Source: Escherichia coli (GTDB lineage: Bacteria; Pseudomonadota; Gammaproteobacteria; Enterobacterales; Enterobacteriaceae). Taken from it: DNA of 40,009 nt. The position numbers and the translations under genes are program-made. Positions 807-24,204 of this stretch are shown here, piece by piece. The notes below the pieces were generated by a model. The model was not told the origin of the DNA, did no database searches, and worked only from the letters and a program-made list of their open reading frames with translations. Each line of letters starts with the position of its first letter. Position 1 is the first letter of the stretch. The stretch lies in the NCBI RefSeq assembly GCF_003334765.1, contig NZ_QOWT01000036.1; one strand, written 5' to 3'.

Positions 807-843
807 ATCGACCATATTCGAGACTGATGACAAACGCAAAACT

Positions 844-942
844 GCCTGATGCGCTACGCTTATCAGGCCTACATGGTCCTGCAATATATTGAATTGGCAA
901 GATTTTTGTAGGCCGGATAAGGCGTTCACGCCGCATCCGGCA
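844..942. repeat. REP/BIME: two REP units in inverted orientation between entD and fepA
   Basis: 844-873 gcctgatgcgctacgcttatcaggcctaca and 908-942 tgtaggccggataaggcgttcacgccgcatccggc are classic REP (palindromic unit) sequences, inverted relative to each other with about 35 bp between them. Confidence 0.7.
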
Positions 943-980
943 TGAACGACGCGCACTTTGTCAACAATCTGACGTTAGCA

Positions 981-20620: not shown

Positions 20621-22726
20621 ATGAACAAATCAGGGAAATACCTCGTCTGGACAGTGCTCTCTGTAATGGGAGCATTTGCTCTGGGATACATTGCTTTAAA
20701 TCGTGGGGAACAGATCAACGCGCTGTGGATTGTGGTGGCGTCGGTCTGTATCTATCTGATCGCTTACCGTTTTTATGGGCTGTATATCGCCAAAAATGTG
20801 CTGGCGGTTGACCCGACGCGTATGACGCCAGCGGTGCGCCATAACGACGGGCTGGACTATGTGCCGACGGACAAGAAAGTGCTGTTCGGTCACCATTTTG
20901 CGGCCATTGCCGGAGCAGGTCCGCTGGTGGGGCCGGTACTGGCGGCGCAAATGGGCTACCTGCCGGGGATGATCTGGCTGCTCGCTGGGGTGGTTCTCGC
21001 CGGTGCGGTGCAGGATTTCATGGTGCTGTTTGTTTCTACGCGCCGTGACGGTCGCTCGCTGGGTGAGCTGGTCAAAGAAGAGATGGGGCCAACCGCCGGG
21101 GTGATTGCGCTGGTGGCCTGCTTTATGATCATGGTCATTATCCTTGCAGTGCTGGCGATGATCGTGGTGAAAGCCCTGACTCATAGCCCGTGGGGAACAT
21201 ATACCGTTGCGTTCACCATTCCGCTGGCGCTGTTTATGGGGATCTACCTGCGCTATCTGCGTCCGGGGCGTATTGGCGAAGTGTCGGTCATCGGTCTGGT
21301 ATTCCTGATTTTCGCCATTATCTCTGGCGGCTGGGTGGCAGAAAGTCCGACCTGGGCACCGTACTTTGACTTTACCGGCGTGCAGTTGACCTGGATGCTG
21401 GTGGGTTACGGTTTTGTGGCGGCGGTGCTGCCGGTGTGGTTACTGCTGGCCCCGCGTGACTACCTCTCTACCTTCCTGAAAATCGGGACTATCGTCGGTC
21501 TGGCGGTAGGCATTTTGATTATGCGCCCGACGCTGACCATGCCTGCGCTGACCAAATTTGTCGATGGCACTGGCCCGGTATGGACCGGTAACCTGTTCCC
21601 GTTCCTGTTTATCACCATCGCCTGTGGCGCGGTGTCTGGCTTCCATGCGCTGATCTCTTCTGGGACCACGCCGAAGATGCTGGCGAACGAAGGGCAGGCG
21701 TGCTTTATCGGCTACGGTGGGATGTTAATGGAATCCTTCGTGGCGATTATGGCGCTGGTTTCCGCCTGTATCATCGATCCGGGCGTGTATTTTGCCATGA
21801 ACAGCCCGATGGCGGTGCTGGCTCCGGCAGGGACGGCGGATGTGGTCGCTTCTGCCGCGCAGGTGGTGAGTAGCTGGGGCTTTAGCATTACACCAGATAC
21901 GCTAAACCAGATTGCCAGCGAAGTGGGTGAACAGTCGATCATTTCCCGTGCGGGCGGTGCGCCGACGCTGGCGGTGGGGATGGCCTACATTCTGCACGGC
22001 GCGCTGGGCGGCATGATGGATGTGGCGTTCTGGTATCACTTCGCCATTTTGTTTGAAGCACTGTTTATTCTGACGGCGGTGGATGCAGGTACGCGTGCTG
22101 CGCGCTTTATGTTGCAGGATCTGCTGGGCGTGGTGTCTCCTGGCCTGAAGCGGACCGATTCACTGCCTGCTAACCTGCTGGCAACAGCGCTGTGCGTACT
22201 GGCGTGGGGCTACTTCCTCCATCAGGGCGTGGTCGATCCGCTGGGCGGCATTAACACTCTGTGGCCGCTGTTTGGTATTGCCAACCAGATGCTGGCAGGG
22301 ATGGCGCTGATGCTCTGTGCCGTGGTGTTGTTCAAGATGAAACGTCAACGTTACGCCTGGGTGGCGCTGGTACCAACGGCCTGGCTGCTGATTTGTACCC
22401 TGACCGCAGGCTGGCAGAAAGCGTTTAGCCCGGATGCGAAAGTCGGCTTCCTGGCCATTGCTAATAAGTTCCAGGCAATGATCGACAGCGGCAATATTCC
22501 GTCGCAGTATACTGAGTCACAGCTGGCGCAACTGGTGTTCAACAACCGTCTGGATGCCGGGTTAACCATCTTCTTTATGGTGGTCGTGGTGGTTCTGGCA
22601 CTGTTCTCGATTAAGACGGCACTTGCGGCATTGAAAGATCCGAAGCCAACGGCGAAAGAAACGCCGTATGAACCAATGCCGGAAAATGTCGAGGAGATCG
22701 TGGCGCAGGCAAAAGGCGCACACTAA
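20621..22726 (+). CDS. cstA: Carbon starvation protein A, CstA (peptide/pyruvate transporter family, 701 aa)
   Basis: Large polytopic membrane protein; translation matches CstA from MNKSGKYLVWTVLSVMGAFAL to the C-terminal AQAKGAH. Confidence 0.95.
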   Translation: MNKSGKYLVWTVLSVMGAFALGYIALNRGEQINALWIVVASVCIYLIAYRFYGLYIAKNVLAVDPTRMTPAVRHNDGLDYVPTDKKVLFGHHFAAIAGAGPLVGPVLAAQMGYLPGMIWLLAGVVLAGAVQDFMVLFVSTRRDGRSLGELVKEEMGPTAGVIALVACFMIMVIILAVLAMIVVKALTHSPWGTYTVAFTIPLALFMGIYLRYLRPGRIGEVSVIGLVFLIFAIISGGWVAESPTWAPYFDFTGVQLTWMLVGYGFVAAVLPVWLLLAPRDYLSTFLKIGTIVGLAVGILIMRPTLTMPALTKFVDGTGPVWTGNLFPFLFITIACGAVSGFHALISSGTTPKMLANEGQACFIGYGGMLMESFVAIMALVSACIIDPGVYFAMNSPMAVLAPAGTADVVASAAQVVSSWGFSITPDTLNQIASEVGEQSIISRAGGAPTLAVGMAYILHGALGGMMDVAFWYHFAILFEALFILTAVDAGTRAARFMLQDLLGVVSPGLKRTDSLPANLLATALCVLAWGYFLHQGVVDPLGGINTLWPLFGIANQMLAGMALMLCAVVLFKMKRQRYAWVALVPTAWLLICTLTAGWQKAFSPDAKVGFLAIANKFQAMIDSGNIPSQYTESQLAQLVFNNRLDAGLTIFFMVVVVVLALFSIKTALAALKDPKPTAKETPYEPMPENVEEIVAQAKGAH

Positions 22727-22730
22727 AGTC

Positions 22731-22816
22731 AGAGTGAGGGGGGGATGTTGGCGAATGTTGGCTTAGTGCCCAGGGTTCCCTCTCACCCTAACCCTCTCCC
22801 CGGTGGGGCGAGGGGA
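22731..22816. repeat. Second copy (inverted orientation) of the GC-rich palindromic repeat seen at 15305-15406
   Basis: ccctctcaccctaaccctctccccggtggggcgagggg (22777-22814) is close to the reverse complement of 15305-15341. gagtgaggg (22732-22740) can pair with ccctctcac (22778-22786) downstream. Confidence 0.45.
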
Positions 22817-22840
22817 CTGACCGAGCGCGTTGATAGCATT

Positions 22841-22876
22841 TGTAGGCCGGATAAGGCGTTCACGCCGCATCCGGCA
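22841..22876. repeat. REP element between cstA and ybdD
   Basis: tgtaggccggataaggcgttcacgccgcatccggca is almost identical to the REP unit at 908-942. Confidence 0.7.
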
Positions 22877-22908
22877 CTCTTTCAGCAACATGGTTAGCGG
22901 AGGCCAAG

Positions 22909-23106
22909 ATGTTTGATTCACTGGCAAAAGCCGGAAAATATTTAGGTCAGGCGGCGAAGCTGATGATTGGTATGCCTGATTACGACAACTATGTCGAACA
23001 TATGCGGGTTAACCATCCCGATCAAACGCCGATGACCTACGAAGAGTTTTTCCGTGAGCGGCAGGACGCGCGCTACGGTGGAAAAGGCGGCGCGCGCTGC
23101 TGCTAA
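22909..23106 (+). CDS. ybdD: Small DUF466-family protein YbdD (65 aa), the usual partner of CstA-family transporters
   Basis: [52 protein letters not shown]...; ggagg ribosome-binding site 6 nt upstream. Confidence 0.85.
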
Positions 23107-23115
23107 ATTTGTACG

Positions 23116-24204
23116 TCAGGCTTTAAACGATTCCACTTTTTTGAACGCTGCACGCAACGTATCTGGTGTCAGCGTGACTGGCAGGTAATGAATGGACTCC
23201 ACCGGACGCAGGGTGTGGGCAATCACTTTGTCGATCTCCGCCTGATTATTGATATCCACTTCCAGCTCCGCCAGTGTAGTCGGCAGATGAAAACGCTGAT
23301 ACGCTCCAGTTAATTGCGCCAGCACATCATCCTGACCCAGCAAGGCGCTTTGCACCAGAATTCCGTAGGCGACTTTGGTGCCGTGGAGAAACTTCTCGGT
23401 TTGCGGCAGCACGGTCAGACCGTTATGCACGGCATGAGCTGCCGCCACACGCGTAAAACGATCGCCCAGACCACCAACCATCCCACCACCAGCAATAATA
23501 GCATCCACCACATCGCAAAATGATTGCGTTAACTGTTGATTTTGCTGATCGCTCAGCGCCTGTTCGCTACTGTTTAACAAGACGTCGCGAATGGCTTGCG
23601 CATTATTGATCCCCAGTCGCACGGTTAGCGGCAACGTTTCTGGTTGCGGAGCCAGCACCACCGCTTCATACCATTTCGCCAGCGTGTCACCGATCCCCGC
23701 CAGCAGATATTGTTGCGGTGCATTGAGGATAATCTCCGGTTCCACCAGCACCATAAAATTGGCGTCGTCGAAAATCTCATAATGCAGCGCCTGTCCGGCA
23801 TCATTATACCAGACGGAGAGCGGTGTCCAGGCGGCGCAGGTGGCGGCGATCGTCGGAACGGCAACAAACGGCAGACCGAGACGGCGGGCGAGGGCTTTCG
23901 CGGTGTCGAGCAGTGCACCGCCACCGACGCCAATCACCACGCTGCGGTCGTCACCGGACTCAGCCGCCAGTTGTTGTACATCGCTTTCGCTGCAATGACC
24001 GCGAAACAAAATATGCTTTGCCCCTGGCAGTCCAAACGCTGGCGGAAGTTTGGTTTGCGCCGCAGCAATGGCGCGTTTGCCGTAGATCCACACCGCGCGA
24101 GAAAGTTGTTCATCAGTGAAAAAATCGTGCAGGTGATTGAAACTTCCTGGATGTGAAAAGTAGTTAGCCGGGCCGACGACCACGCGGATAGGATTGTGAG
24201 GCAT
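23116..24204 (-). CDS. ybdH: Iron-containing alcohol dehydrogenase / glycerol-dehydrogenase-like oxidoreductase YbdH (362 aa)
   Basis: Iron-ADH superfamily features (GGGALLDTAK, several His); matches YbdH. Confidence 0.9.
   Translation of the reverse strand: MPHNPIRVVVGPANYFSHPGSFNHLHDFFTDEQLSRAVWIYGKRAIAAAQTKLPPAFGLPGAKHILFRGHCSESDVQQLAAESGDDRSVVIGVGGGALLDTAKALARRLGLPFVAVPTIAATCAAWTPLSVWYNDAGQALHYEIFDDANFMVLVEPEIILNAPQQYLLAGIGDTLAKWYEAVVLAPQPETLPLTVRLGINNAQAIRDVLLNSSEQALSDQQNQQLTQSFCDVVDAIIAGGGMVGGLGDRFTRVAAAHAVHNGLTVLPQTEKFLHGTKVAYGILVQSALLGQDDVLAQLTGAYQRFHLPTTLAELEVDINNQAEIDKVIAHTLRPVESIHYLPVTLTPDTLRAAFKKVESFKA

Follow-up and report, generated by a model that had tools for sequence, protein, structure and literature searches.

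What fills the 182 nt between the pyruvate transporter gene cstA and its small partner ybdD in Escherichia coli, and how does this filling bear on the messages of the two genes? The question was addressed in a window of 40,009 nt, the whole stretch of DNA analysed (contig NZ_QOWT01000036.1 of assembly GCF_003334765.1), whose cstA-ybdD region displays 100% identity to E. coli K-12-type genomes. Window positions are converted into coordinates of MG1655 (NC_000913.3) by adding 609273. The genes around the spacer are arranged in the order entA, entH, cstA (plus strand), ybdD (plus strand), hcxA, also named ybdH (minus strand), and ybdL, and the features that frame the spacer are the following:

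20621-22726, plus strand: cstA (b0598), pyruvate transporter of 701 aa (ORF list, MG1655 annotation)
22727-22908, plus strand: cstA-ybdD spacer, 182 nt (gene boundaries)
22899-22903, plus strand: Shine-Dalgarno sequence GGAGG of ybdD, 5 nt ahead of the ATG (sequence; CCGGAGG is conserved in Escherichia)
22909-23106, plus strand: ybdD, encoding a 65-aa PF04328 (DUF466) protein (ORF list, MG1655 annotation)
23116-24204, minus strand: hcxA (ybdH), convergent with ybdD (ORF list, MG1655 annotation)

An initial annotation, made from the sequence alone, had given the spacer as 182 bp, a length that the gene coordinates reproduce exactly (22727-22908), and had stated that CstA-type genes usually carry a small DUF466 partner. 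The MG1655 annotation places the small PF04328 gene directly downstream of cstA on the same strand. Among 80 loci scanned in species-representative genomes with YbdD, the CstA C-terminus stands directly upstream of ybdD in 77, the other 3 lying on contigs too short to tell, and the paralogous pair btsT-yjiX extends the same association. It has been established that constitutive pyruvate uptake requires both cstA and ybdD (Hwang et al. 2018). Within the spacer, the following elements were delimited:

22734-22786, plus strand: hairpin A, stem GTGAGGGGGG ... TCCCTCTCAC with a structured loop (MFE helices, -23 kcal/mol; alignments)
22745-22764, plus strand: short tandem duplication within the hairpin A loop, with ATGTTGGC at both 22745 and 22755 (direct reading; alignment gaps)
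22775-22839, plus strand: Box C unit of type A (HPG1), with arm CCCTCTCACCCTAA, core CCCTCTCCCC-GGT-GGGGCGAGGG and tail GACTGACCGAGCGCGTTGATAGCATTTGT (alignments of K-12 copies; Kaplan list)
22778-22814, minus strand: G-rich strand of Box C, CCCTCGCCC-N4-GGGGAGAGGG-TTA-GGGTGAGAGGG (sequence; motif definitions of PMC5100583 and PMC4666352)
22842-22876, plus strand: single REP of Y type (palindromic unit), GTAG at 22842-22845 followed by a stem of 22846-22859 and 22862-22875 (inverted repeat, Rfam, copy search)

The GC-rich palindrome that had been placed at 22731-22816 is real and consists of two stem-loops, hairpin A and the core of a Box C element, an identity that the initial annotation had missed. 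The core palindrome spans 22792-22814, with arms of 10 and 10 nt (22792-22801 and 22805-22814) and a folding energy of -17 kcal/mol. Box C has been tabulated as a 56-bp element with about 32 copies (PMC2267715; range 22-32), and the same family has been published as PIT elements or TMECO intrastrand-triplex motifs, with 23 copies (Holder et al. 2015, PMC4666352), and as HPG1/HPG2 G-quadruplex-hairpin motifs (Kaplan et al. 2016, PMC5100583); Rfam holds no Box C family. The spacer copy was compared with ten other MG1655 sites taken from the list of Kaplan et al. 2016, being aligned to those at fepB-entC, ygfF-gcvP, alx-sstT and hrpB-mrcB, while the remaining K-12 copies were compared by eye. All ten sites display CCCCTCACCCTAACCCTCTCCCC-N3-GGGGCGAGGGGAC followed by the semi-conserved tail TG.CCG.GC.C.TTT..GA..TTTGT, and 22775-22839 fits this type A pattern with, as its only internal difference, a 2-nt insertion in the first block. 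The unit is degenerate, as the insertion falls within its CCCTCACCC block and CCCTCTCACCC replaces CCCCTCACCC; on the G-rich strand the insertion makes the third block read GGGTGAGAGGG, and the strict TMECO pattern CCCTCNCCC-N3-6-GGGNGAGGG-N3-GGGNGAGGG (PMC4666352) is not matched. In Kaplan et al. 2016 the copy figures as a degenerate HPG1. The distribution is that of the family, which is intergenic, present in 20-35 copies per genome and often arranged as inverted pairs of A and B units. At E <= 1e-3, a 108-nt query of the element hits 13 places in the median E. coli genome and 15 in an MG1655 record, and the window itself contains a second copy between fepB and entC, located on the minus strand at about 15261-15411 (core 15306-15328).

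Hairpin A belongs to the same family. At the paired Box C sites a type-B unit is joined to a type-A unit by the conserved loop AATGTTCGCACCAGTGC.GG.CTGTT, and the inverted type-B unit terminates in GGGGTGAGGG at ygfF-gcvP, alx-sstT and fepB-entC. Hairpin A and its loop align at this position, so that, in alignments with these three sites and with hrpB-mrcB, hairpin A corresponds to the middle part (GGGTGAGGG-loop-CCCTCACCC) of a Box C pair from which the left unit is missing; the core of that unit is absent and the end of cstA occupies its place. The ATGTTGGC duplication in the loop is restricted to the K-12-type allele, and other alleles lack 12 nt here. Thus, the spacer shares with the Box C/PIT/TMECO/HPG copies the arm CCCTCACCCTAA, the core CCCTCTCCCC-N3-GGGGCGAGGG, the tail GACTGNCCGNGC, the type-A (TTA) loop, the intergenic position and the remnant of an inverted partner, whereas it differs from them in being degenerate, in having lost the left unit while keeping the central hairpin and, probably, in falling outside the strict TMECO class.

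The second element had been reported as a REP at 22841-22876, and this is borne out with a slight refinement to 22842-22876. It is an imperfect palindrome of 35 nt (GTAGGCCGGATAAGGCG-TTCA-CGCCGCATCCGGC) with 14-nt arms that are 86% complementary, and in the MFE fold its stem is lengthened by the flanks, 22817-22836 pairing with 22879-22897. The sequence agrees with the consensus GCC(G/T)GATGCG..CG(C/T)CTTATC(C/A)GGCCTAC, its reverse strand reading GCCGGATGCGGCGTGAACGCCTTATCCGGCCTAC; this sequence (GCCGGATG... on the reverse strand) is that of the Y type, and the GTAG tetranucleotide associated with RAYT recognition flanks the stem. As for E. coli Y-type REP or PU elements in general, the repeat is extragenic and highly dispersed: about 2,700 E. 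coli records each give at least 40 pieces with a REP query, the median number of places being at least 39, and an identical copy of the spacer REP 30-mer is present at window 912-941, where shuffled sequences predict 0. A search of Rfam, with relaxed thresholds over 22000-23600 and gathering thresholds over the whole window, yields as the only match in the spacer a sub-threshold similarity of the REP to the REP325-derived naRNA4 (38.2 bits, E = 8e-5, gathering score 59.5). In contrast to the clustered members of the family, the spacer holds one REP only, while window 840-945 holds two, and being solitary it does not constitute a BIME. Its distance from the cstA stop codon is 115 nt. The translational down-regulation mediated by REP elements, described in 2015 by Liang and colleagues, reportedly reaches roughly 15 nt, a range that leaves the spacer copy outside.

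The nature of both repeats raises the possibility of a role at the level of DNA rather than of RNA, in which a switch between G-quadruplex, triplex and hairpin at Box C, together with the binding of gyrase, IHF or HU to the REP, would affect supercoiling, replication or recombination. The G-rich Box C motif has published potential to form a G-quadruplex or an intrastrand triplex (PMC5100583, PMC4666352): transitions between G-quadruplex and hairpin have been observed in vitro with consensus oligonucleotides (Kaplan et al. 2016, PMC5100583), and triplex formation by such oligonucleotides, as well as instability of the loci, has been documented (Holder et al. 2015, PMC4666352). However, in vivo DMS footprinting did not support a stable triplex (PMC4666352), the spacer Box C is degenerate in its third G block and the single REP is not a BIME. 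On this balance a DNA-level role is considered very unlikely.

The description of the spacer as a composite of two repetitive, structure-forming elements therefore holds by family membership, the elements being Box C and REP. As judged from its alignments, the spacer is 'one and a half' Box C, namely hairpin A plus one type-A unit, followed by a solitary Y-type REP. The folding energy of the whole 182-nt spacer is ordinary for its composition (z = -1.5 to -1.7 against shuffles), a comparison that is uninformative because GC-rich shuffles also fold well; consequently, the reality of the elements rests on their membership in repeat families and not on energy. Both families, and the Box C copy between cstA and ybdD, were already known from the literature: the latter is HPG1 no. 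19 in Table 1 of Kaplan et al. (PMC5100583), with midpoint 632058 on the minus strand, 51 nt past cstA and 108 nt before ybdD. A 50-aa open reading frame at 22745-22897 was rejected as a gene, since it is built of the repeats and its frame is disrupted by natural indels.

How the repeats might act on RNA is best approached from the transcript ends. Term-seq data provide the following position:

22825, plus strand: RNA 3′ end, MG1655 632098 (Adams et al. 2021, PMC7815308, supplementary files 1 and 3)

The Box C core stem precedes this end by 11 nt, whereas the REP lies downstream of it and the ybdD ATG follows after 84 nt; the end was recorded in LB at OD600 2.0, in one of three conditions, and is weak, with a mean of 1686 reads (PMC7815308). 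It represents the sole curated 3′ end on either strand in 631900-632499, and none is found at the REP (PMC7815308). Two other Box C copies behave in the same manner: that at hrpB-mrcB has a 3′ end at 164636 (plus strand) just past its core stem, and that at lldD-trmL has one in the corresponding place, at 3781065 (plus strand), which scores 1.3 as an intrinsic terminator (threshold 3) and falls within a significant Rho region. In the 100-nt bins of 11 more Box C sites, no 3′ end is curated (PMC7815308). Like the cstA copy, the hrpB-mrcB and lldD-trmL copies are transcribed in the same orientation from the upstream gene. By a rough estimate, assuming a few thousand ends over 9.3 Mb of strand, 3 ends within roughly 15 nt at 16 Box C sites is far above chance. 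Trimming by exonucleases such as RNase II and PNPase leaves ends about 5-11 nt past a stable stem that lacks a U tract. The three Box C copies with 3′ ends past the core stem hint that Box C may act as an RNA 3′-end barrier, like REP. In the cited Box C, PIT, TMECO and HPG publications, promoter, terminator, triplex, G-quadruplex and genome-instability roles are considered, and a 3′-end barrier role is absent.

With somewhat better than even confidence, we propose that the Box C and REP stem-loops serve as 3′-end barriers for cstA mRNA, and that ybdD is read from pass-through transcripts. The cstA promoter would drive both genes. The scan for promoter and terminator consensus sequences over 22400-23300 yielded no sigma-70-like promoter, the shortest spacers of the family, of 14-20 nt (Kosakonia cowanii, Enterobacter sp. 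Bisph1 and K. quasisacchari), imply either co-transcription of cstA and ybdD or a promoter inside cstA, and co-induction of the two genes has been reported for Salmonella inside macrophages; it is from these three observations that co-transcription is inferred. RegulonDB, as quoted in Table 1 of Kaplan et al. (PMC5100583), gives cstA and ybdD as separate single-gene units. In the model, the spacer stem-loops, lacking U tracts, would be inefficient terminators and would instead block 3′-to-5′ exonucleases, as the REP stabilisers in malE-malF do. Transcripts that end or are cut further downstream would be trimmed back to the hairpins, the outcome being a stable cstA-only mRNA whose 3′ end follows the Box C core stem by about 11 nt, and translation of ybdD would be confined to molecules that keep their full length. 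Under this proposal, the cstA:ybdD ratio would be set post-transcriptionally. In addition, the repeat that supplies the hairpin would be largely interchangeable, which would explain how a hairpin can be present family-wide while its sequence turns over freely.

An intercistronic REP stabiliser has been reported for the malE-malF operon by Newbury and Higgins. Both systems share stable stem-loops without U tracts between co-directional genes, with predicted protection of the upstream mRNA and discoordinate expression; the differences are that at cstA-ybdD the effect is predicted only, and that the mapped 3′ end is found at the Box C stem and not at the REP. The first option of the initial annotation, that the repeats may stabilise the upstream mRNA, thus gains from the stationary-phase 3′ end that follows the Box C core stem by 11 nt, and from two further copies that behave alike, evidence that is indirect.

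Its second option was attenuation, in which the structures, by intrinsic or Rho-assisted means, would halt a fixed fraction of polymerases so that ybdD is transcribed less than cstA. A 3′ end inside the spacer, upstream of ybdD, is what such an attenuator would produce, the 3′ end of the lldD Box C copy falls within a significant Rho-termination region, and hairpins with U-rich tails that resemble intrinsic terminators do occur in Atlantibacter, Kosakonia, Buttiauxella, E. coli ST131 (GAGGGCATTTGTATT) and btsT-yjiX. Nevertheless, the tails that follow the three K-12 stems (CCTAAC, GACTGACC and ACTCTTTC) contain no U tract, and the scan over 22400-23300 returned 0 terminator-like sites. Across the family, the last hairpin is followed by at most 2 T in 8 nt in 60 of 77 species, U-rich tails being a minority in a count that is crude, as MFE stems may absorb the tail and tiny 3′ helices may pass as the last hairpin. 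According to the account given by Holder et al. (2015, PMC4666352), PIT/Box C elements had proved inactive as promoters and as terminators in earlier reporter tests and had not affected RNA polymerase, a result that fits a barrier better than a terminator while lending no positive support to the former. Finally, in about 22% of E. coli genomes neither the Box C core nor the REP is present, yet YbdD is identical. Attenuation of read-through is therefore regarded as unlikely.

On the opposite strand, convergent transcripts of hcxA would likewise run into the Box C and REP structures. The stop codons of ybdD and hcxA are only 9 nt apart, so that hcxA transcripts must cross ybdD in antisense, heading for the repeats, and ybdD-hcxA is a listed convergent excludon. 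On this strand, the data of Adams et al. 2021 give the following:

22721, minus strand: Rho-termination region, MG1655 631994, Rho score 4.5, p = 8e-6 (PMC7815308, supplementary file 2)

For transcripts arriving from hcxA, this position falls immediately past the repeats (PMC7815308). It could be postulated that the elements form the 3′ end of hcxA transcripts and thereby limit antisense transcription into cstA. However, the position has low resolution because Rho scores use windows of about 800 nt, no minus-strand Term-seq 3′ end is curated in 631900-632499, and the convergence with hcxA, known here from E. coli, would not explain a hairpin found family-wide. A main role on the opposite strand is accordingly given a low probability.

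Within E. coli the spacer is polymorphic. Spacer architectures were counted with junction-specific queries in 5,426 complete E. coli genomes:

3,696 genomes, about 68%: Box C tail, REP and ybdD leader (junction query)
1,189 genomes, 22%: 112-nt spacer of the ST131 type, without Box C core or REP (junction query)
231 genomes, about 4%: Box C without REP, 141 nt, of the EC42405 type (junction query)
136 genomes: matched in part by the no-REP query (one inspected, EC21Z-144); the REP-only class amounts to 2.5% or more

The K-12 allele itself is represented by about 1,346 genomes at 99% identity or above. The EC21Z-144 spacer consists of hairpin A and REP without the Box C core, an arrangement that recurs in the E. 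albertii, E. whittamii and Escherichia sp. MOD1-EC7003 representatives. In the ST131-type spacer, hairpin A is accompanied by a fragment of the Box C tail, after which comes a small hairpin, GCCCTC-TTAATTCAG-GAGGGC-ATTTGT. Hairpin A is retained in all Escherichia haplotypes examined. Since hairpin A plus REP without the core is common to E. albertii, E. whittamii and clade strains, its distribution suggests that this state was ancestral in Escherichia. Against this, ST131-type strains retain the Box C tail together with a hairpin that resembles, and aligns with, that of Citrobacter and Salmonella, the flanking GCATTTGTA included; on this alignment, the small ST131-type hairpin may instead be the ancestral state. 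Either a gain of the Box C core through conversion or its loss through deletion may underlie the haplotypes.

These variants raise the simplest alternative, namely that Box C and REP are neutral or selfish filler, by-products of repeat spread and decay at a tolerant site, without an effect on expression and with the 3′ end at 22825 as an incidental decay intermediate. At least four E. coli spacer architectures coexist with an identical YbdD protein accession in the genomes inspected. It has been reported that Box C/TMECO loci are far more variable than control intergenic sites and that paired copies decay to a residual hairpin (Holder et al. 2015, PMC4666352), a report that the instability of this spacer matches, and several dedicated Box C studies assigned no function to the element. 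On the other side stand the strong hairpin, which 77 of 80 species and all Escherichia haplotypes studied possess and which recurs in the independent btsT-yjiX pair, and the conservation of stems within clades, where the alignments of Kluyvera and of Citrobacter/Salmonella reveal some, albeit few, compensatory changes. We therefore consider pure filler to be rather unlikely. Whichever reading holds, at least four spacer versions in natural E. coli offer a ready-made test of whether repeats such as Box C, described about 30 years ago, influence the expression of flanking genes.

The barrier reading is best viewed in the context of the whole family. Examination of spacer content in other enterobacteria had been put forward as a check in the initial annotation, and it revealed a strong GC-rich hairpin in 77 of 80 species, those with spacers of at least 47 nt, in sequence types that are unrelated. 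Spacers mostly measure 55-63 nt (range 14-195 nt), the 182 nt of K-12 being the second longest. For the 77 spacers of at least 47 nt, the median folding z is -3.3 against dinucleotide shuffles, with values lower than -2 in 83% of them, the most stable hairpin per spacer reaches a median of -21 kcal/mol, and the last hairpin ends a median of 16 nt ahead of the ATG, just before the Shine-Dalgarno sequence. The hairpins belong to at least four unrelated types, including a simple CCCTCTCC/GGAGAGGG stem, REP-like elements and single or double Box C, distributed as follows:

Citrobacter, Salmonella, Kosakonia: simple stem GCCCTCTCC-N4-6-GGAGAGGGC
Enterobacter, Lelliottia, Leclercia, Trabulsiella: species-specific REP-like elements
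E. hormaechei, E. asburiae, Leclercia, Lelliottia, Pluralibacter, Pseudocitrobacter, Cedecea, Phytobacter: one or two full Box C units, in an arrangement unlike that of E. coli
Kluyvera, Buttiauxella, Atlantibacter, Siccibacter: other unique stems

The comparison shows that Box C and REP are lineage-specific and unstable fillings of a site with a near-universal hairpin. It is tempting to go further and to regard the stem-loop at the transporter/DUF466 junction, in both cstA-ybdD and btsT-yjiX, as a selected RNA element across Enterobacteriaceae that sets the ratio of transporter to partner, mobile REP and Box C elements having repeatedly replaced, as interchangeable substitutes in function, an ancestral hairpin of the Citrobacter/Salmonella type; this extension is offered tentatively and with considerable doubt. 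If true, it would be a case of genomic repeats recruited to maintain a conserved RNA structure. The family-wide conservation of the hairpin could be due, in part, to a feature common to gene ends at large, or to the repeats favouring pre-existing hairpins. What is new here, beyond the known repeats, is the pattern of conserved structure and variable sequence at the transporter/DUF466 junction, together with a possible link between Box C stems and the position of RNA 3′ ends.

The paralogous pair btsT (yjiY)-yjiX of MG1655 provides an independent instance of the arrangement. Its 49-nt spacer consists of GCCCCGC-TTCG-GCGGGGC followed by TTTGTTCTT. In common with cstA-ybdD, the pair displays the transporter/DUF466 architecture and a strong GC-rich hairpin just ahead of the ribosome-binding site of the small gene, whereas the btsT-yjiX hairpin is of unique sequence, contains no repeat element and, with its U-rich tail, has the look of a canonical intrinsic terminator.

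Beyond E. coli, eight loci of the 80-locus scan of species-representative genomes with YbdD (L014, L017, L043, L060, L063, L064, L070 and L076), from the genera Enterobacter, Leclercia, Lelliottia, Pluralibacter and Phytobacter, carry two Box C units in the cstA-ybdD spacer, with a folding energy of -50 to -80 kcal/mol. The units are arranged opposite to the E. coli pairs, with CCCTCACCC on the outer left and GGGTGAGGG on the outer right. Box C is thereby implied to have colonised one common site, the cstA-ybdD spacer, on independent occasions.

Two further loci of the scan come from assemblies with Gram-positive labels. L008, a 465-nt contig labelled Streptomyces sp. DH24, contains an enterobacterial ybdD (98% identity), and L034, labelled as a Bacillota MAG, contains another (89% identity) together with an Enterobacter-type cstA-ybdD spacer that includes REP and Box C. 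Contamination or mis-binning most likely accounts for both.

The first description of Box C was reportedly that of Bergler in 1992, at envM, which is the fabI site of the table in Kaplan 2016. The repeat family of window 22775-22839 has been named independently as Box C/PIT/TMECO, described as a triplex (Holder 2015, PMC4666352), and as HPG1/HPG2, described as a G-quadruplex (Kaplan 2016, PMC5100583); the term Box C does not occur in the text of the latter. The family is also found as a pair in the fepB leader region, corresponding to HPGQ 17/18 of Kaplan 2016:

15261-15411, minus strand: paired Box C, degenerate type B plus type A, in the fepB-entC divergent region

At the 5' edge of this pair, ahead of the hairpins and not beyond them, Term-seq data place a highly abundant RNA 3' end: 624680 (-), window 15407, with 103,563 reads in LB 0.4 (Adams 2021, PMC7815308).

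Elsewhere in the window, a two-REP cluster, whose Y-type REP is identical to that of the cstA-ybdD spacer, and three Rfam matches were detected:

840-945: BIME of two REPs, Z-type followed by inverted Y-type
865-906, minus strand: ES036 (CssrF), above its gathering score, inside the two-REP cluster
29433-29526, plus strand: sRNA STnc70, gathering-level match, 42.7 bits
34739-34847, minus strand: rnk leader, gathering-level match, 124.9 bits

The regulation of cstA by CsrA is known. Three plus-strand Term-seq 3' ends lie inside the start of the cstA ORF (Adams 2021, PMC7815308), suggesting processing or premature termination at the cstA 5' end:

20641 (= 629914), plus strand: 20 nt into cstA, 9,744 reads, LB 2.0
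20681 (= 629954), plus strand: 60 nt into cstA
21012 (= 630285), plus strand: 391 nt into cstA

At the other side of the spacer, the stop codons of the convergent ybdD and hcxA (genes 22909-24204) are 9 nt apart (window 23106-23116), so that termination of each gene necessarily occurs within or past the other. The pair is included in a listing of convergent excludons (PMC12288877), and a Rho-termination region has been reported at window 22721 (-) (PMC7815308).
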